Shown piece after piece: positions 1,995 through 14,234 of a DNA stretch of 32,000 nt (position 1 is the stretch's first letter; each line of letters starts with the position of its first letter). The stretch covers positions 1-32,000 of the forward strand of contig JBGAFW010000082.1 of the NCBI GenBank assembly GCA_044227045.1, given 5' to 3'. A program made the position numbers and the translations under genes. The stretch comes from Labilithrix sp. GTDB taxonomy: Bacteria > Myxococcota_A > Polyangia > Polyangiales > Polyangiaceae. The notes under the pieces are model-generated. The model had not been told where the DNA came from, did no database searches, and saw only the letters and a program-made list of their open reading frames with translations.

Positions 1995-2989
1995 CACACT
2001 TCTCCTCCCAGAGTTGCGTTTCGTCCACACTCGTCTTTTGCGTTCTTGCGCGCTGGAGCCGCGCGCCGCCGCGTCGCGCGCACCAGGATGCCCGCCGCGA
2101 GGAACATCCCGACCGCGCCAAAGGAGAGCGCGCTGGTGTTGCCCGGCTGCACCGAGCAGAGGCCGGTCTTCTCGGGATCGTCGCACGACCCGCTGAAGCC
2201 GCCACGAGGCGTCGTGTTGCACGCCGCGGTGCTGGTCGACGGATAGATCGCGCAGACGGCCTCGACGTCGTCGTCGGTGAGCTTTCGCTGCGCGAGCGAG
2301 CCCGGCGAGTACGACGCGAACATGACCGCGTCGGGGTTCGGCGAGTGCGCGATGCCGATGAAGTGACCGACCTCGTGCGTGAGGATGGCTTGGAGGTCGT
2401 AGTCGACCTTGGCGGGGTCATCGGTGATCGTCACGGTGTTGTTGGCCGTGTTCACCTCGATGTCCGCGTCGTAGATCTCTCCGGTGTCGTCGTTGTACGT
2501 GACGCTCGTCTTCGCGAGCGTCCCGTCGATGCCGCGATACTTCCAGTTGTCGTCCTGAAAGAGGACGACGTTAACGTTCGGGCCCGTCTTGTTGTATTCG
2601 CTCTTCTTGCACGAGATCGGCTCGAGCTCTTGAAAGGTCATCTTCGCCGTCGTGCCGTCGGGGCACTGCACGTCGCTCCAGGCGAGGAACGTCTTCTTGA
2701 TGACGGCGCGGGTGTCGCTCGGATCCAAATCCTGCGTGCCGAGCTTGTTGGTCGCGTAGCTGATACACGACGTCGGCCAGAACAGCTTCGCGCCCGACGC
2801 CGGGCAGCTATCTTCGTCGGTCGGGCACTCCTTGGTCGCGGTCGAGCGGCAGGTCGTCGAACGACAGAACGCGCTCGCCTCGCTCACGAACGCGAGCGAC
2901 ACGCCAAGCATCGCCACGCCGACCGCGAGAGGTCGACCGAGGCGGAGACCCCGCCCGAGGCGTGCTGTGAGCTTTGACGAGCGGCCCAT
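1994..2989 (-). CDS. Matrixin-like (M10-type) zinc metalloprotease with a MYXO-CTERM-like C-terminal sorting signal
   Basis: HEVGHFIGIAH is the HExxHxxGxxH zincin motif, followed by a Met-turn candidate (DAVMFASY). The signal peptide is MGRSSKLTARLGRGLRLGRPLAVGVAMLGVSLAFVSEASA, starting at ATG 2989 (the ORF-track start 3034 is also possible). The C-terminus GLCSVQPGNTSALSFGAVGMFLAAGILVRATRRR has the Cys/hydrophobic/Arg-cluster layout of MYXO-CTERM. Confidence 0.85.
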   Translation of the reverse strand: MGRSSKLTARLGRGLRLGRPLAVGVAMLGVSLAFVSEASAFCRSTTCRSTATKECPTDEDSCPASGAKLFWPTSCISYATNKLGTQDLDPSDTRAVIKKTFLAWSDVQCPDGTTAKMTFQELEPISCKKSEYNKTGPNVNVVLFQDDNWKYRGIDGTLAKTSVTYNDDTGEIYDADIEVNTANNTVTITDDPAKVDYDLQAILTHEVGHFIGIAHSPNPDAVMFASYSPGSLAQRKLTDDDVEAVCAIYPSTSTAACNTTPRGGFSGSCDDPEKTGLCSVQPGNTSALSFGAVGMFLAAGILVRATRRRAAPARKNAKDECGRNATLGGEV

Positions 2990-3298
2990 GTTCCCAGCAA
3001 GTTCCGCTGCACGACCGATGCCAGTGTAGGACAAGGTGCGTCAGTGATGGTACCCCGATAAAACAGGGCGGCGCGAAGGCTGGGCTCGAGCGATCCGCGA
3101 CCCATGGAGTCATGGCTGGTGCAGCCCCGATCCACCGCGACGCGGCCGCCAGACCCCTTTTCGCGCATCTCTTGGGCGGGCGCGCGCCTTTGGTCCAGCT
3201 ACCCACCGTGGTTGAGGGTGGACGCCCGAGCTCGAAGTCTACGGGCGTCCGGCTTCGCGCGGTTGCACGTCGTCCCGAGCCCCGCCCTCTCCGCACAG

Positions 3299-3365
3299 GC
3301 GCCGCGCGAAGAAGGCGCCGCGCGAAGAAGCGCCGCGCGAAGAAGCGCCGCGCGAAGAAGGCGCC
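3299..3365. repeat. Tandem repeat, about 4.3 copies of a 15-16-nt unit GCGCCGCGCGAAGAAG
   Basis: Read directly from the sequence: copies at 3299-3314, 3315-3330, 3331-3345 and 3346-3360, plus a partial copy. It lies in the ~0.9-kb divergent intergenic region. Confidence 0.9.
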
Positions 3366-3950
3366 ATGGGCTCGCGGGATCGCGCGAAGAAACATGAAGA
3401 ACAAAAAGAAGAAGGTTGCGAAGCCAGGCTCTTGGCGACGCAACCTTGGAAAAGCGGAGCAGGAGCACGGAAGCGGCCAAGCCCACGATCTCGTGAGGCG
3501 CGAACCGTTGCAAGCTCGAACGGACAACCGATCAAAGCGCGCGCACGAACGAACGATGACGTGATCAAGGCCACCGGCTCAGATGGCGATTGCATCACGC
3601 GTTCGTTCGTCGGTCGTTCTCTGATCGTTCGTCTCGATCGTCGCGTGCAAAGCTGAGTGGTTCGTGCCGTGAGACCGCGAAGAAGCGAGCGTCGAGTGAC
3701 TCAACTAGTCTCCGCAGAAAAATTAGCCATCGAGGGCGACGAAAATAACGCCGAGGAGAGGGGGAGCGGTGAGGCGTTAGCCTCGCCGCCATCGATGTCT
3801 GCTTGGAGTACTTGCTGGAGCTGTGCCGTCGTCGAGAGCCGTTCGCGCGACGCGAAGTGATGGGCCGACCACGCATGCCAAGGAACGCTCCCATGAAGAA
3901 ACACCGAGAGAAGCCGGGTGTGCCTTCGACTCGCGAAAAGCTGCTGAGTA

Positions 3951-4532
3951 TTGGTCTCAGGGATCATGAATGCTCAGGAGCCTGGTCGCCTTTTGCTCGG
4001 TCGGTCTACGATGACGATCATGGACGTTGTCGTCGTGCCACCGTCTTCCAAACGATTTGCGCGATTTGCGTCATCGAGCAGCGCACGAAGCTTGCCGATC
4101 ACGCCGTCCGCGCCGTCCGCGCCGTCCGCCGCCGCGCTCTCCATCGTGCTGATGCTGGCATCCACCAGCGCCTGCAGCCGAACGTCCTCGACGGACGCGA
4201 CCTCGAACGATGATGCGAGCCGAGCAACATCGACGACGCAGTCACCCTCACGCGTCGGCTCGTGCGACCGTGTAGTCGCAACGGGGACGTGCTCCGAGTA
4301 CACGGGCACCTACCTCGCCCAGAACGAAGTGCTCCTCACGTCCACGTGCGCCAAGCTCGGCGGCACGTGGGTCTACGCCGAGTGCCCAAACACCTCGGTC
4401 GTCGGCAAGTGCTCGCTCTCGACGACCGAGGTGCGCAAGTTCTACGGAACGGGCGCCGCCTCCTACGAGCCCGACAAGGCAAAGACCGAGTGCGAGACCT
4501 CGTTCCGCGGCACGTGGCAAGTCCACCGCTGA
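3951..4532 (+). CDS. Hypothetical small Cys-containing secreted/lipoprotein (start uncertain)
   Basis: ORF-track entry. It has a hydrophobic stretch ending in Cys (AALSIVLMLASTSAC) and then a compact Cys-containing domain (CDRVVATGTCSEYTG...CAKLGGTWVYAECPNTSVVGKCS...ECETSFRGTWQVHR). The competing antisense ORF 3974..4309 is less protein-like. Confidence 0.5.
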   Translation: MVSGIMNAQEPGRLLLGRSTMTIMDVVVVPPSSKRFARFASSSSARSLPITPSAPSAPSAAALSIVLMLASTSACSRTSSTDATSNDDASRATSTTQSPSRVGSCDRVVATGTCSEYTGTYLAQNEVLLTSTCAKLGGTWVYAECPNTSVVGKCSLSTTEVRKFYGTGAASYEPDKAKTECETSFRGTWQVHR

Positions 4533-4564
4533 ATGTGCCGCAGACGCCGAGAGAGCGCGGCACC

Positions 4565-5880
4565 GCTTCAACAAATGGCCGCGAAGCACCTTGGTCGACC
4601 AAGGTGACTCAAGCGAGCTCGCGGCACCCTTTTCAACAAATGTGTTCGTCGATTGGAGGTAAGCGTTCAGTCAAACGCGTACACGATAGCGACTGCCGAT
4701 CAGCCGCGCGCGTCAAGCGTGAGCCGGCGGAAGACGTTCGCGTTGAGGAGAGCGTGGACCTCGTTCAGCACGGAGGTCTTCTTCCATTCGCGAGCTCGAG
4801 CAGGCGGTGCGATGGCCACTTCGTCGATTGGAGCGGTGGCTCGCCGCTCGGTCGGGCGGCCACCGAGGTCACGCGCCGGACTCGTCGCCGGAGGAGCCGG
4901 ACGTGAAGCACCTTGGTTGACCAAGGTGAAACGGCGAGAGCTACCCTTTTCAACAAGTGTGATCCTCGATGCGGGTGGCACGCACGCTCGGCCGGGCGGC
5001 CACCGAGGTCACGCGCCGGACTCGTCGCCGGAGGAGCACGATGGACGCCGAGCACCTTGGTTGACCAAGGTGGTTTCGAAGTCGAGAGATCGCGGCACCG
5101 TTTTCAACAAGTGTGTTCGTCGAGTCGATCACGCGGGCCCGCGACGTCGCGTGCCAGATTCTCGCCAGACCACAACGGACGCTGAACACCCAAGGTAGCC
5201 GCCTTCTCAACAAGTGAGCTCGTACACGCGAGTGGCACGCCGCTCGGTCAGGCGGCCACCGCCATCACGCGTGAAGCACCTTGGTTGACCAAGGTAGCTC
5301 TGCACGTCGAGAGCTCGCGGGACGCTTCTCAACAAGAGGGTTCACCCTGCGGGTGGCACGCCGCACGGTCGGGCGGCCACGCGCGCCGCATGAAGCACTT
5401 TGGTTGACCAAGGTAGCTCTGCATGTCGAGGGCGAGGACGGCATACTCTTCAACAAGTGTGTTCGTCGATGATCATGCGGGTGGCACGCCGCTCGGTCGG
5501 GCGGCCACGCGGCCGCGTGAAGCACCTTGGTTGACCAAGGTAGCTGCACGTCGAGCGCGAGGAACGGCGATCTTTCTCAACAAGTGTGTTCGTGCCCGCA
5601 CGATCGAATCGGCGCGATCATCGTCCGGTCGCGCGCGAACGCGGTAAGCGTTCGGTCAAACGCGTACACGATAGCGACTGCCGATCAGCCGCACGCGAAC
5701 GCGTGAAGCACCTTGGTTGACGTAGCTCCGAACGTCGAGCGTCGCGCGCCATCACGAACGCGTGAAGCACCTTGGTTGACCAAGGTGGATCGCGCTCGAC
5801 GTTCGGCGGACGCAACCCTTCTCGACAAGTGCGTTCGTGATCGTGCGGGTGGCACGTCGCTCGCGAGCTCGGTCACGGTG
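4565..5880. repeat. Mosaic tandem array of 8-9 units of about 120-147 bp, each carrying a 20-bp palindrome plus two further conserved modules
   Basis: Module P is (GT)GAAGCACCTTGGT(T/C)GACCAAGGT(G/A), at 4583, 4903, 5050, 5271, 5391, 5517 and 5762, with truncated copies at 5183 and 5703. Module B is C(C/T)TTTCAACAAGTGTGTTCGTCGA, at about 4628, 4944, 5098, 5201, 5324, 5446, 5571 and 5816. Module C is GCGGGTGGCACGCCGCTCGGTCGGGCGGCCAC, at about 4834, 4971, 5231, 5349, 5477 and 5845. A 50-nt module (4658-4707 and 5643-5692) matches at 49/50. A block of at least 41 nt is identical at 4857-4897 and 4997-5037. No ORF is consistent across the units. Confidence 0.9.
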
Positions 5881-6015
5881 ATTGCGATCGTCGGCGACGT
5901 TCGTGCGATCGCGTTGCGCGGTCGGTGGGAGAAAGTGGAAGGGAAGGGTCGCAACGGTTGAAACGAGCGCTTTGGCGCTGCAGGCTTCGGTGGCTACGTG
6001 CAAGGAGGACGCGAC

Positions 6016-6726
6016 ATGGCAGACGGGCTCGTTTCGGCGAAGGAGCTTGCAGCGAAGAGGAAACCGCGGTTCGCGCGCGAGAGGTCCGCGTATGCGAAGG
6101 CTCGAGAGGCGCTGTTGGCGGAGGAGATCGAGGTGCGCCGGCATCTCGGGCGGCTTGCGCGACAGAACCGTGAGCTGCCCGAAGGGCCTGAGATGCCCGA
6201 CCACTGGAAGCTCATCGGAATGAACGGCGCGGAGGTTCGGCTCGCCGACATGTTTGGCCAGCACGACACGCTGGTCCTCTACCACTGGATGTTCGGTCCC
6301 GAGCGCAATCGACCTTGTCCGATGTGCACGAACCTCCTCGGGCCACTCGCCGCCAACGCCGCCGATCTCCAGCAGCATGTCGCGCTCGCGGTGGTGTCAC
6401 GCTCGAAGGTCGAGCGCATGGTCGCCTTCGGTATCGAACGTGGTTGGCGTGACCTGCCGTACTACCAGACCGTGTCCGATGAGCTGTCGGTCGCGATCGG
6501 AGGGCTCGATCCGGAGACGAAAGCGGAGGTGCCCGTGCTCATGGTGCTTCGGAAGAAGGGCGACACCGTACGCTTGCACTGGATGGGCGAGACGACGCTC
6601 GAGATGGCCGATCCGGGCGAGGACCCGCGCGGCGCCGTCGACCTCGCGCCGCTCTGGAACTACCTCGATCTCACGCCGGCGGGGCGCGACCCGAAATGGT
6701 ACCCGCGCCTCTCGTACGGTCCGTAG
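6016..6726 (+). CDS. DUF899-family thioredoxin-fold protein
   Basis: LVLYHWMFGP....CPMC...VSRS...GW..LPYY...LDLTPAGRDP.WYPRLSY follows the DUF899 (PF05988) pattern. ATG 6016 sits about 7 nt downstream of AAGGAGG (6002-6008). The ORF-track start is 5998. Confidence 0.8.
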   Translation: MADGLVSAKELAAKRKPRFARERSAYAKAREALLAEEIEVRRHLGRLARQNRELPEGPEMPDHWKLIGMNGAEVRLADMFGQHDTLVLYHWMFGPERNRPCPMCTNLLGPLAANAADLQQHVALAVVSRSKVERMVAFGIERGWRDLPYYQTVSDELSVAIGGLDPETKAEVPVLMVLRKKGDTVRLHWMGETTLEMADPGEDPRGAVDLAPLWNYLDLTPAGRDPKWYPRLSYGP

Positions 6727-6765: not shown

Positions 6766-6898
6766 CGCGGATGGCCGCGGATGGCCGACCGACCGACGGC
6801 CGACGGGTGATCACCGTCCGCCTGCTCCGCCGCCGCCGACCGCTGACCGTCCGACCGTCCGACCGTCCGACCGTCCGACCCGCACGCACGCACGCACG
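6766..6898. repeat. Simple-sequence tract: GATGGCCG x2, GACCGTCC x4 (6845-6876), CGCA x4 (6881-6898)
   Basis: Read directly from the sequence. It lies between the convergent stops of 6016..6726 (+) and 6928..9141 (-). Confidence 0.85.
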
Positions 6899-9141: not shown

Positions 9142-9321
9142 GACGGTTGCGGTCAGTCTTGCAGCCAAGACGCGGCGCGCAACTACACAGGCGCACATTT
9201 GACGACCCTGGAATTTCGAAGCATCGCCCCGCCTAAAAACGCCGCAAAAATCGATGGATCGGCCAAATCCCTGGACGGCTCCGATCCAGGTTTTCGCGGG
9301 CTCCGCGCCGATTTTCGGGCG

Positions 9322-9926
9322 CCACTTCGGCAGAGGCCAAGTCACTCGCTCTGCCGAAGTCGCCTGCTACTTCGGCAGAGGCGAAGTCACCCGCTCTGCC
9401 GAAGTCGCCTGCTACTTCGGCAGAGGCGAAGTCACCCGCTCTGCCGAAGTCCCCCGCCACTTCGGCAGAGGCGAAGTGCTCTGCCGAAGTCGCCCGCTAC
9501 TTCGGCAGAGGCGAAGTCACCCGCTCTGCCGAAGTCCCCCGCCACTTCGGTAGAGGCGAAGTCAGCCGCTCTGCCGAAGTCGCCCGCTACTTCGGCAGAG
9601 GCGAAGTCAACCGCTCTGCCGAAGTCCCCCGCCACTTCGGCAGAGGCGAAGTGCCTGGGCCGAAGTCCCGCCACTTCGGCAGGCAGAGGCGAGTCGCCCG
9701 CTCTGCCGAAGTCCCCGCCACTTCGGTAGAGGCGTCAGCGCTCTGCCGAAGTCGCTCTCGCCGGCAGAGGCGAAGTCAACCGCTCTGCCGAAGTCCCTCG
9801 CCACTTCGGCAGAGGCGAAGTGAGCCGCTCTGCCGAAGGCCCGCAACTTGATCCTCTCGGGCGTCCACTTCGGCAGAGGCGAAGTCAACCGCTCTGTCGA
9901 AGTCCCCCGCCACTTCGGCAGAGGTC
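9322..9926. repeat. Tandem array of about 14 copies of a 45-bp self-complementary unit
   Basis: The unit is ACTTCGGCAGAGGCGAAGTCACCCGCTCTGCCGAAGTC(G/C)CC(T/C)GC(T/C)A. ACTTCGGCAGAG starts at 9324, 9369, 9414, 9459, 9499, 9544, 9589, 9634, 9673, 9720, ~9761, 9803, 9867 and 9912. ACTTCGGCAGAG and CTCTGCCGAAGT are exact reverse complements. Copies of 39, 40 and 47 nt break every reading frame. Confidence 0.95.
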
Positions 9927-9938
9927 GCGCTGCTGGTC

Positions 9939-10688
9939 TTACTTCACGATCGCGGCGACCGCTGCGGCGAGCGCCAACAGGATCGCGAGCACGATCGCGA
10001 GGAGCTTGATCGACGCCATCGTGCGCGGAGGGACCGCGCTCGACTGTACAGCCTTCGACTTCGTCTTCGCCTTCGGGCGCTCCTCGGCGATGTCGTCGGC
10101 GTCTTGCTCGCTCGCGTCGATGTCCTGCGACGTCGCGGCGATGCTGTCCGGGATCTCTTCGTTGTGCGCCTTCGCGCGCTTCTTCTTCTCTTCCGAGCGT
10201 GACGTGGCGGACGCAGGCGCCGCTTGAGGATTCTTGCGTGACGCAGGACCTGCCGCGCGGCCCTTCTTCGACTTCTGCTTCTGCCGCATCGCCGCGGCGC
10301 GCGGGCGCTGGCGCTGGCGCTTCGCCTCGAGCTTCGCGCGTTTCTTTTCTTTCTTCTTCGCGGCGCGTTCGTCGCGAGCCTTCTTCGCCTCCGCGAACGC
10401 GACGTGATCGAGCCGCTCGTCCGGGAGCTCCGGCTCGGGCTCGTCGTCGTCGTCGTCGTCGTCCTCCTCTTCACCGGGGAAGAGATCGTCGAGCCATCCT
10501 TCATCGAGCTCGTCGACGTTCGGATCGGAGGGCTCGGCGACGACGTTCGAAGCAGCGCCCGCGGGCTTGTCGTCCGTGGGATCGTCCGCTCTCAGCTTGG
10601 CGTTGGGCGGAGGTGGCGTGGCCCAACCATCCTCGAGCTCTTCGAGGAGGTCGCGTGAGCTATCCAGCCGGTTCCGTTCGGTCGCCAT
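9939..10688 (-). CDS. Highly charged, low-complexity protein with a C-terminal transmembrane anchor
   Basis: The ORF starts at ATG 10688. It has an acidic N-half (two E(D/E)GW motifs, a D8 run), a K/R-rich middle (AKKKEKKRAKLEAKRQRQR) and a C-terminal hydrophobic helix (IKLLAIVLAILLALAAAVAAIVK). It lies 38 bp downstream of the response regulator on the same strand. Confidence 0.7.
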   Translation of the reverse strand: MATERNRLDSSRDLLEELEDGWATPPPPNAKLRADDPTDDKPAGAASNVVAEPSDPNVDELDEGWLDDLFPGEEEDDDDDDDEPEPELPDERLDHVAFAEAKKARDERAAKKKEKKRAKLEAKRQRQRPRAAAMRQKQKSKKGRAAGPASRKNPQAAPASATSRSEEKKKRAKAHNEEIPDSIAATSQDIDASEQDADDIAEERPKAKTKSKAVQSSAVPPRTMASIKLLAIVLAILLALAAAVAAIVK

Positions 10689-10726: not shown

Positions 10727-11200
10727 CTATGTCGTGCTCGTGCTTCGTGGCGGATGCGTGAGCCGACCGACGATTCGGCGTACCAGCTCGGCGGGCAAGA
10801 TGGGCTTCACGAGAAAAGCATCGCAGCCCGATCTCCAGGCGTTCATGCGGTGCTGCTCTTCACTGAACCCCGTGATCGCCATCACGTAGATGTCCCGCGT
10901 CCGCGGATTTTCTTTGAGGCGGCGCGTGGCCGTCCATCCGTCGACGTTCGGCATCGCGAGATCCATGACGACGACCTCGGGTCCGGGCTCCTCGGCCTTC
11001 TTGATCGCCTCCGCGCCGTCATGGGCGACGATGACGCGAAAGCCCGCGAAGCGAAGGTAGTCGGCGTAGATGCGACGGGTGTCTTCGTAGTCGTCGACGA
11101 CGAGCACGAGCGGGACCTTGTTCGCGCTCGCGACCGGCGTCGCGGCGAGCATCGACGAGCTGGACCTTCTGTTTCGCAGGCGCGGCACTATCCCAATCAT
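10727..11200 (-). CDS. Single-domain CheY-like response regulator
   Basis: Receiver-domain signature: LVLVVDDYEDTRR..., VVVMDLAMPNVDGW (phospho-acceptor Asp), MAITGF, DAFLVKP. The start is ATG 11200 (or 11152); the ORF-track N-terminal extension is rejected. Confidence 0.85.
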   Translation of the reverse strand: MIGIVPRLRNRRSSSSMLAATPVASANKVPLVLVVDDYEDTRRIYADYLRFAGFRVIVAHDGAEAIKKAEEPGPEVVVMDLAMPNVDGWTATRRLKENPRTRDIYVMAITGFSEEQHRMNAWRSGCDAFLVKPILPAELVRRIVGRLTHPPRSTSTT

Positions 11201-11455: not shown

Positions 11456-13860
11456 GAGCTCGCTTTCCGTGGGGGAGCGTCTTAACCCATTGTGGATTCA
11501 TTGTCCGCCCCGTTGGACGTTGCACTGAGGAGGCCAATCCCGCCTGTGCCATCGTCGCATTCGTTGTTGGGTGCCTTCACTGCAATCCCGGTTATTCGCG
11601 TAACCAGAAGAGAGGAGGGTCGACGAAGCTATTCGCTGTCGTCAGCTTCAGCCGATCGCGATGTGGCGCACCTCTGGACCGGCGCCTTTTACGCGCCGAG
11701 GATGCTGACTCCCCGTGATCGTTCTCCGATCTTGTGGAGCCTTCACCAAACCGTGTCGACCTCTGACGTTCCCACTGTCGCCCGCAGGCACAGCCGAGTC
11801 GGAGTCCGTATCCGCCCGATCTGCTGTCCAGCAATCCAAAGCGTCTTGCGACGATTGAATTGAGGAGTTGACCTACGAGCCCGAGGACTTCTGCTTCGCC
11901 CGACCGGTGAAAGTCAGACGGGCATCAGCCCGAGAACGCCTTCTATCGTATTGAGAACCTGCAAGCCGAAACCTACAGGCCATGCACACGAAGACTTTTA
12001 AGAATCGTGCACACGCGCACTGTTTCGCCTTCTGCCCACTCACGATCCTCGTCAGAAGGATCTATGAGCTTCTTCCTGGCTAGCGCCCTCTCGTACCAAC
12101 AGGCCTTGCGACCTCCCGGTAGAAAAGACGCGCAATGCGTCCAACCGATGTCTGCCACCCAAACGACTTGCGTGCACCCGCACCTCGTGAGCTCCCAGCG
12201 TCTCTCCAGATTTTCACCTGGTGACCACCCCGCAGAGTCTTAGGCTCTGCGCAGTACGACTGGGGGACGGAACGTTTCACGGCGTTCCTCATGTCCGCTT
12301 CGGCGGATCGTCATCGCAACACTTCCTAACGGACTCGTGCTCGCTTGATCTTGCGATCCTCTGCGGCGCGAGCGTGGGCGTTTTCTTCCCACGGTGTTGA
12401 TGCGATCGAGCCTCTGACACTCCTGTCGTAATCTCCTCTGGTTCACCCTCCGCCTCGCTCGTCTTCACGAGCGCTGCGTCTTGGCCGTCCGTTCTTTCTC
12501 TCCCGATGCTGGGAGTTGAAAGGGTTCGTACGGGTCGGAGGATGCGGAGACCACCAAGACCACTCCTATCGCCATCTCGTGAAAGACGACGCTTCGTTGT
12601 GGCCCGGAATGCCTTCCACCGTTAGGGACTCTTCGTAGGATCCGGTGGTCCTTACAACCCCGGTCCCGCGACCCACTCACCACTTTTGGCGATGCGTGAA
12701 CCGCTGAATGACACTCTCGCGTCACCCTGAGCCTTCGTCGATTCTCTCCCGTCTTTACCGGTGAGATCGACTCGCGACTTCCTTTCACCCGACGCGCCCG
12801 CCGACGGTTTCACCCGCCGATTTTCGCTCCGAGCTAGATCCCTGTTCACTCGACCCTGGCCGCTCTTTTTGGAGCGCGTTTGCCGAGCTTATTCGAGACC
12901 AGTTATCGCCTAACGACTTCTGCAACTGCACTTCGACGTGCGGGCAACCTAACCCGGACTCTCTGATCCTCGCAGGGACGAAGGCCTCGACCTTCTTCCT
13001 TTTCTGAGCTCATCACGCCCTCTGCCTTGCGACAGCGGTGATGAGTGGCGAGCCGCGCTACGTCCGTTCGAGAAAACCCCAGTGTTGGTTCTTCTCGGTT
13101 ACCCGAGCTTGCCCAACCGTGATGCTCTCCCGCCCGCCCCACCATCTCGAGCTTGCGCCCGGGATGTGTAGTGAGGATTGACGTGCACGGGTCGAAGGAC
13201 CGAGCGAAGGACGCGTCCTCCGGTTCATTCGTACGATCTCTCGTGCGGATGCGGAGTGCATACGCTTTGTGGCGCATGCTGACGGCGTTCCCCTCCTCGG
13301 CGTCCTTCGGACATCCGCTGTCATCGGCGCGCCTGCTTGCAGAGGGGGATACCTCTGCCCGCATTCGGACCGACCAAGACCCTCTTTCCAACGACGACCC
13401 GCGAAGGTCGCCGCCTTTCAGAAGATCGGGATGCCTTTCCCCGTCACGACATACGAAGGAGTCTTTGATTGCGCGAAGAGGCTTGCACCTCTCCGGCCTT
13501 CGTACCGGCTCTCTCGCTCACGCCGCTCACACGTTGTTCCTTCTCGCGAAGGAGTCGTGCTTGTTGTTCGAGCATTGCAAGTGTCACGGTGCGGTCACCC
13601 GCTCCATCCGCGACTGTTCGAGAGTGCAGACGCCTTTGTGACTCGTTGGTACTTCCGCGCCTGGACCTGACGACCCAAGCACGCCACCGAGCTCGACCGA
13701 CTCAGCCGTCGACGGGAACAGATTGTCCCGCTCGCACTGATGCCAGTCGCAGCGCCTAGACGGCTTCTACGACCGAGAGCCCGCGGCCCGATGTGCCGCG
13801 AACTTCATGAGCGGTTTATGCCCGAACGCGTTTGGCCTCGCAACAAAATAAATCGCTGCT
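11400..13860 (-). ncRNA. Candidate large (~2.4 kb) structured non-coding RNA of unknown class; 5' end not defined
   Basis: No ORF exceeds 162 aa in any frame. Hand counts give ~60% GC, against ~67% in a coding sample. The + strand is ~62% pyrimidine in two 120-nt samples. Six GNRA-capped hairpins read on the minus strand, at 11842-11853, 12102-12113, 12347-12358, 13022-13035, 13478-13491 and 13538-13553. A sarcin-ricin-like GGUACGAGAGGG lies at 12086-12097. An intrinsic terminator marks the 3' end. I saw no universal rRNA motifs. Confidence 0.5.
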
Positions 13861-13871
13861 CAATCACTTTT

Positions 13872-13892
13872 TTATCCACAAGGTTATCCACA
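13872..13892 (+). promoter_or_regulatory. Two perfect consensus DnaA boxes (TTATCCACA) in direct tandem
   Basis: TTATCCACA at 13872-13880 and 13884-13892, separated by AGG. Confidence 0.75.
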
Positions 13893-13982
13893 GCGCGCGT
13901 CACATCGTGATCGCACGCGACGCACGCGGCGTCGTGTTTTTAGGCGAAATTCTGCGTGTGGCCGGTTCGGGATGCTGGCGCC

Positions 13983-14062
13983 TGTGGAAAACAATAACGT
14001 TTGATTGGTATCGCCAATCGAAACAATAGTGTTTGATTTTGATGATTGAAAACGTGATTGAG
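13983..14062. promoter_or_regulatory. AT-rich tract with an inverted DnaA-like box and GATTG iterons; possible promoter region or unwinding element
   Basis: TGTGGAAAA at 13983-13991 is the reverse complement of TTTTCCACA. GATTG occurs at 14003, 14044 and 14056, CAATC at 14015 and GATTT at 14034. GATTGG-N5-CCAATC is an inverted repeat. The stretch is far more AT-rich than its surroundings. Confidence 0.5.
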
Positions 14063-14234
14063 AGCGCGCGCCGTAACAAGACCGAAACAAAGCGCTAACC
14101 AAGAATTTTCAAGCGCTCACGCATGCACGCTGAGTCATGCGAACGACCCGCTCGAGGCCCACTGCGGCGGGTCACCTCTGCCATCTCGACACACGTGGAT
14201 CCCGCTTCGTGCGGTGGCGTGCGAGCGAGTGGGC

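Follow-up and report, generated by a model that had tools for sequence, protein, structure and literature searches.

A lineage-restricted tandem array of composite hairpin-forming units between a lipoprotein gene and a DUF899 gene in Labilithrix sp.

In a 32,000-nucleotide stretch of Labilithrix sp. DNA (GenBank assembly GCA_044227045.1, contig JBGAFW010000082.1, positions 1 to 32,000 of the forward strand; hereafter, the window), the interval between a gene for a small secreted protein or lipoprotein and a gene for a thioredoxin-like DUF899 protein is occupied by a mosaic of about eight tandem units of ~120 bases, in which three conserved modules follow each other in the fixed order P-B-C and are separated by diverged spacers. 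The mosaic starts ~10 nt past the stop codon of the lipoprotein gene (4530-4532) and ends 136 nt short of the start of the DUF899 gene (6016), and every copy of P, B and C lies on the + strand, which is also the strand of both flanking genes. The array is real, and it consists of a previously undescribed, lineage-restricted composite unit able to form hairpins; the canonical form of ~120-145 bp is seen in only three to four of the units. The evidence base is this one locus in one narrow lineage. A first-pass annotation, made from the letters alone, had already described a tandem array of the three modules with diverged spacers, and all of its sequence claims on this point hold on recount.

Module P is a palindrome, CACCTTGGT(YG)ACCAAGGTG, present in seven intact copies and in two that have decayed by deletion. 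Its 20-mer, GCACCTTGGTTGACCAAGGT, has a perfect or near-perfect dyad symmetry of 9-2-9, and the first copy is, as had been said, a perfect 20-bp palindrome with a TCGA centre (4587-4606). When up to three mismatches are allowed, CACCTTGGTNNACCAAGGTG matches at 4587, 4909, 5053, 5277, 5396, 5523 and 5768, with no match in the rest of the window and none in 100 shuffles. The left flank of P, (C)GTGAAG (oriented form CGYGTGAAG), is also conserved, and it is asymmetric. The two truncated copies that had been reported are explained by deletions, found at 5183 and 5705. By contrast, the palindromes are not evenly spaced, as had been claimed, since successive P copies are 322, 144, 224, 119, 127, 186 and 59 bp apart, an irregular series without helical phasing. 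Module B occurs in eight copies and a partial one, and module C, GGTGGCACGCCGCTCGGTCGGGCGGCCAC, in six; neither is found beyond the array in the window. The canonical C module can fold into a hairpin, GUGGC(a)CGCC, a 9-nt loop and GGCGGCCAC, with a predicted RNA free energy of about -18 kcal/mol. The GC content of the array is 63.5%, compared with 64.6% for the window.

Two pairs of long repeated blocks, here called D10 and D7, are also found inside the array (Table 1). One had been described as a 50-nt block with 49 of 50 positions identical, and the other as an identical block of at least 41 nt; both duplications are real, whereas their extents and identities have to be revised to those given in the table. 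The D7 pair points to a recent duplication. Regarding the assembly, two independent short-read assemblies of the same species (contigs L007 and L009) reproduce 5663-5880 nearly exactly and then break in a repeated block; consequently, independent assembly support covers 5663-5880 and not the interior of the array, 4660-5663.

Table 1. Coordinates of the array, its modules and the flanking genes in the window.
Feature	Position	Strand	Remarks
Small secreted protein/lipoprotein gene	3966-4532	+	Left-side synteny kept in Labilithrix metagenome-assembled genomes
Whole mosaic array	4536-5880	+	1.3 kb, non-coding, between the lipoprotein and DUF899 genes
P copy 1	4583-4606	+	GAAG plus perfect 20-bp palindrome, TCGA centre
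Outer helix of P copy 1	GCCGCG 4578-4583 / CGCGGC 4620-4625	+	
Gene remnant	4700-4795	-	3' end of a convergent gene (...ALLNANVFRRLTLDARG*), ~30 codons inside unit 1
D10 block	4658-4712 and 5643-5697	+	55 nt, 96% identical, 985 bp apart
D7 block	4845-4897 and 4985-5037	+	53 nt, 98% identical, 140 bp apart
P copy 2	4905-4928	+	
P copy 3	5049-5072	+	
Decayed P	5183-5198	+	GAACACC-CAAGGTAGC; ~10 nt lost between ACC direct repeats
P copy 4	5273-5296	+	Outer helix H0 CGUG 5270-5273 / CACG 5303-5306
P copy 5	5392-5415	+	C-to-T change gives a U·G pair in the stem; H0 CAUG 5389-5392 / CAUG 5422-5425
Module B, example copy	5446-5469	+	YTTYTCAACAAGTGTGTTCGTCGA, ~43% GC
Helix H2, example copy	5457-5478	+	GUGUG 5457-5461 / CAUGC 5474-5478, closes a variable loop
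Module C, canonical copy	5477-5508	+	Contains TGGCACG-N4-TCGG
P copy 6	5519-5542	+	
Decayed P	5705-5723	+	4-nt CAAG deletion
P copy 7, last unit	5764-5787	+	Within a 36-bp extended inverted repeat, 5760-5795
Module B, other copies	4629, 4946, 5100, 5203, 5325, 5573, 5818; partial at 4565	+	
Module C, other copies	4832, 4972, 5228, 5349, 5845 (variant)	+	
DUF899 (thioredoxin-like) gene	6016-6726	+	

The array is considered non-coding because the open reading frames (ORFs) that cross it have a flat codon-position composition (GC1/2/3 of 0.57-0.75), in contrast to a GC3 of 0.81-0.83 in the flanking genes, which agrees with the earlier statement that no reading frame survives across the units. Additionally, six-frame translations of the units had no match in 5.8 billion proteins, and the array-spanning ORF had none among 1.84 billion cluster representatives. 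A mini-ORF of five codons, GTG/ATG AAG CAC CTT GGT TGA, overlaps the left half of P in six units (5270-5290 and equivalents); in unit 3, an upstream in-frame ATG is found in place of the GTG, and at two D7 junctions (4885-4891 and 5025-5031) a GGAGGAG motif resembling a Shine-Dalgarno sequence lies a few nucleotides before the mini-ORF. As this motif is absent from most copies, the mini-ORF was dropped as a real coding feature, and its overlap with P is probably a coincidence.

The conservation of the units is highly selective. P copies share a mean pairwise identity of 95% and B copies one of 82%, compared with 58% (gapped) for the spacer between them, a value of 48% being obtained with shuffled spacers. 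The spacers have diverged and, therefore, the copies must be old, yet the modules have been kept. Because the modules are conserved so far above the spacers adjacent to them, a uniform neutral decay after duplication is ruled out.

The substitutions that did occur in the modules tend to preserve base pairing. For instance, in hairpin C, when nine pairs are compared across nine sequences, pairing is seen in 88.9% of the cells, whereas sliding the partners lowers it to 31-63%. The four substitutions among the five canonical C paralogues all fall in the loop or the bulge, and none falls in the 18 stem positions. In contigs L017 and L018, which belong to a sister lineage (see below), TGGCAC is changed to CGGCGT through a compensated swap of U-A to C-G, a change in the bulge and a C-to-U transition that leaves a U·G pair. 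Two one-sided changes in this hairpin yield G·U pairs on the + strand.

Another helix, H2, was found by RNAalifold and is formed by the 3' half of B (GUGUG) and the five bases that precede C (CAUGC). Of the 11 B-containing units examined, 9 have this helix and, in these nine, all five pairs vary, 88.6% of the cells are paired and two pairs show double changes, with a covariation score of 0.439 that was equalled by 4 of 500 shuffles. Since two of its positions are mostly U·G and G·U, H2 exists on the + strand only. In unit 4, another hairpin, AGGG-UUCA-CCCU, takes the place of the whole H2 segment.

P is, in turn, enclosed by an outer helix, H0, in which the left flank of P pairs with part of the “variable” spacer. 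The sequence of this helix differs between units (GCCGCG/CGCGGC in unit 1, CGUG/CACG in units 4 and 6, CAUG/CAUG in unit 5 and GCGUGA/UCGCGC in unit 8), and unit 5 differs from units 4 and 6 by a compensatory G-C to A-U change. The summed folding energy of the P flanks on the + strand is -104.5 kcal/mol, compared with -87.6 +/- 7.8 kcal/mol for shuffled flanks (6 of 300 shuffles reach it), whereas on the - strand they add no more than shuffled flanks do (-92.2 vs. -90.1 kcal/mol, reached by 123 of 300 shuffles). When P, H2 and C are combined, 87.9% of the cells are paired, a value reached by none of 500 shuffles and well apart from the 32-45% of the slid controls; three pairs carry double changes and the combined covariation score was equalled by 6 of 500 shuffles, figures that stem from few independent events and from helices partly derived from the same sequences. 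None of the differences between units 4 and 5 breaks any of the four helices. As judged from these patterns, the measurable constraints are those of base pairing within one strand (C, H2 and H0) and not those of dyad sites in double-stranded DNA.

The array also changes rapidly between strains. The sister lineage mentioned above shares 95% nucleotide identity with the window in DUF899 (87% at third codon positions) and carries related units at both flanks of the array, so the array predates the split of the two lineages. On the right side, contigs L017 and L018 begin inside the last P, and their last unit is a recombinant of a left part of the unit-6 type and a right part of the unit-8 type; the right half of the last P is intact there despite the replacement of the adjacent spacer. 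On the left side, contigs L019 and L020 have B'-P(degenerate)-B-P(truncated) after the lipoprotein gene, and the alignment of unit 1 with L020 shows 73.5% identity, 11 gaps and a degenerate P, in comparison with the 87% of third codon positions. P copies are lost via deletions between short direct repeats, and three of about ten copies have decayed in this way. Copy number and unit composition would, as far as the sequences indicate, shift by unequal recombination and slippage between modules; recent unequal recombination had been suggested earlier as well.

Traces of this turnover are also visible in the neighbourhood. The protein sequence encoded by the remnant of a convergent gene inside unit 1 (Table 1) is conserved in L020, in which another piece of the array abuts the same point. 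Because the remnant is embedded in unit 1 and another array piece ends at the same place in L020, the array has overgrown and largely deleted a former neighbour gene. Neither the remnant nor the lipoprotein belongs to any Pfam family at E<=10. Between the array and DUF899, the 136 nt at 5880-6015 are only 91% identical to those of the same-species contigs L007 and L009, in comparison with 99.7% for the coding DNA of DUF899, which suggests local hypervariability or recombination beside the array.

Searches for the units elsewhere indicate that their distribution is narrow. The exact P pattern gave only chance single palindromes in unrelated contexts among 185,579 species' representative genomes, JGI metagenomes and viral contigs, and blastn of three units against 72,556 plasmids and against phages gave no match. 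Similarly, when a profile hidden Markov model of the unit was run on the window and on all fetched loci, no additional copy emerged, and P, B and C were likewise absent from the remaining ~30 kb of the window and from loci of 10-12 kb in related metagenome-assembled genomes (MAGs). Relatives with 83-85% identity in DUF899 or 60-66% in the lipoprotein have neither the array nor any module, and only the left flank is syntenic in them; in Labilithrix MAGs, the lipoprotein gene is followed by an ordinary intergenic region of 109-290 nt. In the literature, nothing was found on such repeats, on the palindrome core or on repetitive extragenic palindromic (REP)-like elements in myxobacteria. On these comparisons, the array is confined to one narrow, Labilithrix-like lineage at the species level, and it matches no family, plasmid, phage, genome or metagenome searched.

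Regarding expression, a scan of 4300-6200 found no sigma-70-like promoter and no + strand intrinsic terminator, in line with the earlier failure to see either of them in the units; the promoter scan was of the sigma-70 type, and a separate consensus check was made for sigma-54 (see below). Covariance models of Rfam 15, applied to the whole window at their gathering thresholds, gave no match (Pxr and other small RNAs included), and scans for tRNA and tmRNA found nothing. Genes for ParB, ParA, RAYT, GIY-YIG, Y1 transposase, rep, helix-turn-helix or Cas proteins were found neither in Pfam scans of the ORFs of the window nor in those of six-frame translations of its unannotated stretches, which bears out the statement that no ParB-like, RAYT or transposase partner is encoded there.

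With a probability of roughly 0.4, we tentatively favour the interpretation that the locus is a tandem array of a new structured unit of ~120 nt that is read on the + strand, shrinks and grows by unequal recombination and is probably co-transcribed after the lipoprotein gene. In the predicted fold, each unit would begin with a long 5' stem-loop, in which H0 is topped by the P helix (8-10 bp, UUGA loop), and would continue with a variable linker, the conserved pyrimidine-rich segment YUUYUCAACAAG, predicted to be single-stranded, the short hairpin H2 and, finally, the GC-rich hairpin C. Transcription of the + strand would take place by read-through from the lipoprotein gene, which is the most likely source because the array starts 10 nt after its stop codon and neither a terminator nor a promoter in each unit was found. 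The product could be a multi-copy structured RNA whose ~120-nt units are freed by processing, as in small RNA clusters derived from 3' untranslated regions, and its conserved single-stranded segment may then act in trans; alternatively, it could be a string of cis-acting stem-loops between the lipoprotein and DUF899 genes. A search inside the window for targets of the B segment returned, as top duplexes (best 6 per seed), only the antisense strand of the array itself. The folded molecule may be RNA or single-stranded DNA (ssDNA), and a repeated structured RNA or hairpin-repeat element is more likely, from what the pairing patterns suggest, than an array for protein docking. The first-pass annotation had offered REP-like elements or a processed multi-copy small RNA as its fallback, and this part of it fits better, with a structured single strand co-oriented with the genes, although a strict REP assignment fails, among the features that could be compared, for want of the 5' GTAG and of alternating orientation.

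Several observations weigh against the interpretation that we favour. Whole-unit folding z-scores are modest (-0.9 to -2.8) and alike on both strands, and the one-sided transitions in P and C (3 vs. 2) favour neither strand. The covariation rests on few independent events, drawn from paralogues plus two related contigs, part of the helix choice was made on the very sequences then tested, and related sequences can surpass shuffles in pair counts without any structure. Moreover, the P stem is invariant, with zero covariation, a pattern that would suit sequence-specific recognition at least as well as pure structure, and ssDNA hairpins used by a transposase or a nuclease would impose similar pairing constraints. 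Orthologous positions of the array evolve faster than synonymous sites and, in the last unit of L017 and L018, the B segment differs. Finally, at E<=10, Rfam gave only two chance-level matches in 4400-6100, CC3513 (15.8 bits, cut-off 40) and P17 (12.1 bits, cut-off 45).

The array would belong to a broad known kind, that of intergenic arrays of structured repeats, which includes tandem small RNA clusters, bacterial interspersed mosaic elements (BIMEs) and neisserial intergenic mosaic elements (NIMEs), without being a member of any of the defined families with which it was compared. Among tandem small RNA clusters, each repeat of the cyanobacterial NsiR1 array carries a terminator. NsiR1 has 12 copies in Anabaena PCC 7120, where each repeat has a HetR-dependent promoter for a 60-nt RNA (PMC4030482; Ionescu et al. 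2010), and the array is present in apparently all available heterocystous cyanobacterial genomes (PMC4030482). Like NsiR1, the repeats of which are small structured RNA units, the Labilithrix array is formed by direct tandem repeats in one orientation beside a protein-coding gene; unlike it, the units are ~120 nt long, have no sigma-70 promoter or terminator that could be found in each of them, occur in one species-level lineage and are known from sequence alone. The CcsR1-4 (“cuckoo”) RNAs of Rhodobacter are several homologous stem-loop RNAs that directly follow a small protein gene, head to tail; they lack individual promoters and are freed by processing, and their units are shorter, with conserved CCUCCUCCC loops. 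The position directly downstream of a small protein gene, the stem-loop units and the lack of own promoters are shared with the array described here, in which processing is what we infer. In contrast, the conserved segment here is YUUYUCAACAAG, the unit is longer and there is no sequence similarity.

The resemblance to hairpin-DNA mosaics is also considerable. The REPs of enterobacteria have a conserved 5' GTAG, a mismatch in the stem and alternating REP and inverted REP (iREP) orientations, and are dispersed in hundreds of copies, together with a RAYT gene (PMC3333891). As in BIMEs, the array combines extragenic palindromic hairpins and linker motifs in variable tandem mosaics, with a copy number that differs between strains (PMC3333891), and its AT-richer B recalls the BIME linker type that has an AT-richer protein-binding site (PMC3333891). 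However, the GTAG is found here 3' of P and in units 4-7 only, the 5' flank is (C)GTGAAG, the modules are all direct, there are two unrelated hairpins per unit, and neither dispersal nor RAYT is seen in the window. The NIMEs, built with dRS3 or NTS repeats, alternate a 20-bp palindrome with mosaic segments of ~50-150 bp from several families (PMC1797815), as does our array, which also shares with them an oriented, conserved 5' hairpin flank, a position beside variable genes and differences between strains (PMC11893778, PMC1797815). NIMEs are dispersed in hundreds of copies, and the Ssn nuclease is encoded by a small cd10448 GIY-YIG gene flanked by the repeats (PMC1797815, PMC11893778). Neither the ATTCCC-N8-GGGAAT pattern nor the SRM pattern, HGTCWYN(0-2)YYVSBRHN(0-5)WNVSBRGN(0-2)RNCYNB, has a match on either strand of the window. 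Unlike the NIME case, no GIY-YIG gene is present in the window, and the segments between the palindromes carry conserved covarying helices. Lastly, the centromere-like sopC (F) and parC (R1) are made of short, near-identical, regularly spaced units beside genes of the parA/parB type. Tandem units each with a short inverted repeat and a 2-bp centre are common to both, whereas the array here has a spacing of 59-322 bp, a spacer identity of ~58%, decaying copies and a chromosomal context, with no par genes in the window.

Because hairpins of ssDNA leave similar traces, the main rival explanation is a selfish or structural mosaic of hairpin DNA, of the REP/BIME or NIME/NTS type, which we regard as unlikely but deserving of serious attention. 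P (with its oriented flank CGYGTGAAG) and C would be recognised in ssDNA by a Y1 transposase or a small nuclease encoded elsewhere or, alternatively, the hairpins would merely provoke replication slippage; in this way the units would amplify and shuffle, and any effect on the neighbouring genes would be incidental. The geometry of P is that of the published NTS hairpin, in which the stem has 8 bp, the loop 4 nt and a conserved 5' flank sets the orientation (PMC11893778), 20-bp palindromes and mosaic segments of ~100 bp and several types take turns as they do in NIMEs (PMC1797815), and an invariant P stem is what sequence-specific recognition predicts. The fast turnover between strains, with the recombinant last unit of L017 and the different pieces that abut the same remnant in the window and in L020, is consistent with such a mosaic, as are the palindrome-typical deletions by which P decays, the position at a synteny break and the second, unrelated hairpin array (9317-9947) that flanks the same island. 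By contrast, the lack of other P, B or C copies in the remaining 30 kb of the window and in the related MAG loci, the chance single matches of the exact P pattern in genomes, metagenomes and viral contigs, the failure of the published SRM and dRS3 patterns in the window, the missing 5' GTAG and REP/iREP alternation and the absence of RAYT, GIY-YIG and transposase genes from the window all argue against it, and H0 and H2 depend on G·U pairs that would be weak as G·T in DNA. An even simpler proposal is a neutral minisatellite, created by slippage and unequal crossing-over at an unstable intergenic site, in which the modules would be conserved through gene conversion only. The near-identical blocks (53 nt at 98%, 55 nt at 96%), a sign of recent duplication, the clustering of other tandem tracts at 3.3-10 kb, the lack of an array in related Labilithrix MAGs with conserved left synteny and the array positions that outpace synonymous sites could all be accounted for in this manner. 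Nevertheless, neither neutral decay nor the conversion of whole units can produce a P of 95% identity 1 nt away from a spacer of ~58%, and the substitutions of C that are restricted to its loop and the compensatory changes in C, H2 and H0 would be left unexplained, so that we attach very little weight to this proposal.

Other explanations locate the function of the units in the binding of proteins to double-stranded DNA. P could be the operator of a dimeric protein encoded elsewhere (a regulator, a nucleoid-associated protein or a ParB/SopB-like protein), and the eight sites would then form a cooperative, decoy or centromere-like cluster upstream of DUF899. The 9-2-9 dyad symmetry of P, 95% conserved beside near-random spacers, the intact right half of the last P in the sister lineage beside a replaced spacer and the end of the array only 136 nt upstream of DUF899 agree with this model; additionally, tandem palindromes are used by myxobacterial enhancer-binding proteins, such as PexR, which binds CACCG-N6-CGGTG repeats (PMC12754779). 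However, the 59-322 bp spacing is irregular and without helical phasing, the left flank of P is conserved and asymmetric, two P copies have decayed in the window and, in L019 and L020, the first P is degenerate and a further copy truncated. No partner gene is found in the window, no published operator in the literature searched matches the P core, and B, H2 and C, with their pairing-preserving changes, would be left without explanation. We consequently find this model improbable, and the dimeric helix-turn-helix, centromere-like or iteron array favoured by the first-pass annotation is not supported, in view of the irregular, unphased spacing, the absence of par and rep genes from the window and the decay of P in both lineages; a plain array of operators for a dimeric regulator is possible, on the symmetry of the palindromes, for P alone. 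A further proposal is that of sigma-54 enhancer-promoter cassettes, in which C would be a -24/-12 promoter (TGGCACG-N4-TCGG/TCGC), P the enhancer and B a bending site, and the transcript starting right after C would be the RNA of the next unit or, for the last unit, the DUF899 mRNA. The Pxr RNA of Myxococcus is a reported case of a sigma-54-dependent small RNA. On both strands of the window, the only matches of at least 10 of 12 to TGGCACG-N4-TTGCW are three C modules (5233, 5482 and 5850), that at 5850 having GC at -12; the predicted start, 24 nt past the GG, coincides with the final base of C, immediately ahead of the 5' strand of H0, and the order of palindrome, AT-richer patch and TGGCAC is the classical order of enhancer, bend and promoter. 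TGGCACG is perfect in five of the six C copies (TGGCTCG at 4835). In contrast, the canonical C has GG instead of the near-invariant GC at -12, which is found only at 5850, paralogues change at critical positions while their hairpin stems are spared (TGGCTC at 4835, a 1-nt insertion in the spacing at 4972, T-to-A at 5362), and the motif is gone in L017 and L018, where TGGCAC has become CGGCGT or CAGCGT through hairpin-neutral changes. Moreover, P and TGGCAC are separated by a variable, unphased 58-77 bp, and no activator gene is present in the window. Such cassettes are, for these reasons, a poor prospect, and scarcely more can be expected of the composite idea that each unit is a self-contained sigma-54 small RNA cassette in which C would be both the terminal hairpin of one RNA and the promoter of the next, P both the enhancer and the apical RNA stem, and the last promoter would feed DUF899.

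Other candidates were tried and dropped. The centre of P, GTTGACC, resembles the GTTRRRY of integron attC sites, although a separate R'' core and an intI gene are both missing. LexA, Cheo-box or IHF-like sites in B and GntR/FadR-like or PexR-like sites in P are partial matches to degenerate consensus sequences and thus no more than leads, and promoters of the extracytoplasmic function type on the - strand of B have an inconsistent spacing (15-21 nt). An origin with iterons does not agree with a unit of ~120 bp instead of 17-22 bp, the GC content (63.5% vs. 64.6%), the lack of a rep gene in the window or the absence of any match in the 72,556 plasmids. A CRISPR array was discarded because the segments between P copies are homologous to each other (they carry B and C) and no cas genes were found in the window. 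In type III toxin-antitoxin systems, ToxI-like arrays have repeats of ~34-45 nt directly upstream of an endoribonuclease toxin gene; here, the unit is ~120 nt and the downstream gene encodes the thioredoxin-like DUF899 protein.

If the array is transcribed, it would represent a multi-copy structured RNA not described before from the Polyangia, the genomes of which are very large, and a compact natural case in which the pairing of the modules is kept while the array is reshuffled between strains that share 95% identity. If, instead, it is a mosaic of hairpin DNA, it would extend the BIME/NIME type of genome architecture to Myxococcota, and the locus would mark a hot spot of gene-content change, with a DUF899/PPDK_N island between two different hairpin arrays.

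Regarding this genomic context, the flanking proteins point to a Labilithrix-like polyangial genome, in the phylum Myxococcota. The window and the Labilithrix MAGs have in common the gene order DUF4215, DUF4215, M10 peptidase and lipoprotein on the left side, and the DUF899 protein is 83% identical to that of a Labilithrix MAG. The array sits at the point where synteny breaks: from the end of the lipoprotein gene to a receiver-only response regulator gene (10748-11107, - strand), the segment 4532-10748 is not syntenic with the MAG loci L021 and L025, which have other genes there, and it looks like a variable island. The order within it is the array, DUF899, a PPDK_N-domain gene, a second array and a low-complexity gene.

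The second array (9317-9947) has ~14 units of 40-45 bp that are unrelated to those described above. Its unit, ACTTCGGCAGAG-N13-CTCTGCCGAAGT, can form a 12-bp stem with an RNA free energy of about -23 kcal/mol, and contig L007 has an identical copy of the first one. On one side of this second array is the stop codon of a minus-strand ORF (9939) and on the other the start of the PPDK_N-domain gene (~9141); it shares with the first array the layout of gene, array and gene on one strand, so the DUF899/PPDK_N pair is bracketed by two arrays. The minus-strand ORF (9939-10688), directly downstream of the response-regulator gene and upstream of the second array, encodes an acidic/basic protein of low complexity that has a hydrophobic helix at its C-terminus. 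The DUF899 and PPDK_N genes are convergent, and the space between them is taken up by a short-period tract, (CCGACCGT)n followed by (CGCA)n (6784-6898). Beyond the island, a region of ~2.4 kb (11800-14200) has a GC content of 52-60%, compared with 64.6% for the window, and gave no Pfam match in six frames and no Rfam match. On the other side, an ORF at 2974-3564 (+ strand), which belongs to no Pfam family and is also called in contig L019, would encode a small basic K/R-rich (RRAKK)n protein and contains a 15/31-nt tandem repeat at 3297-3365. Between 3.3 and 10 kb, the window has a cluster of several further tandem tracts.

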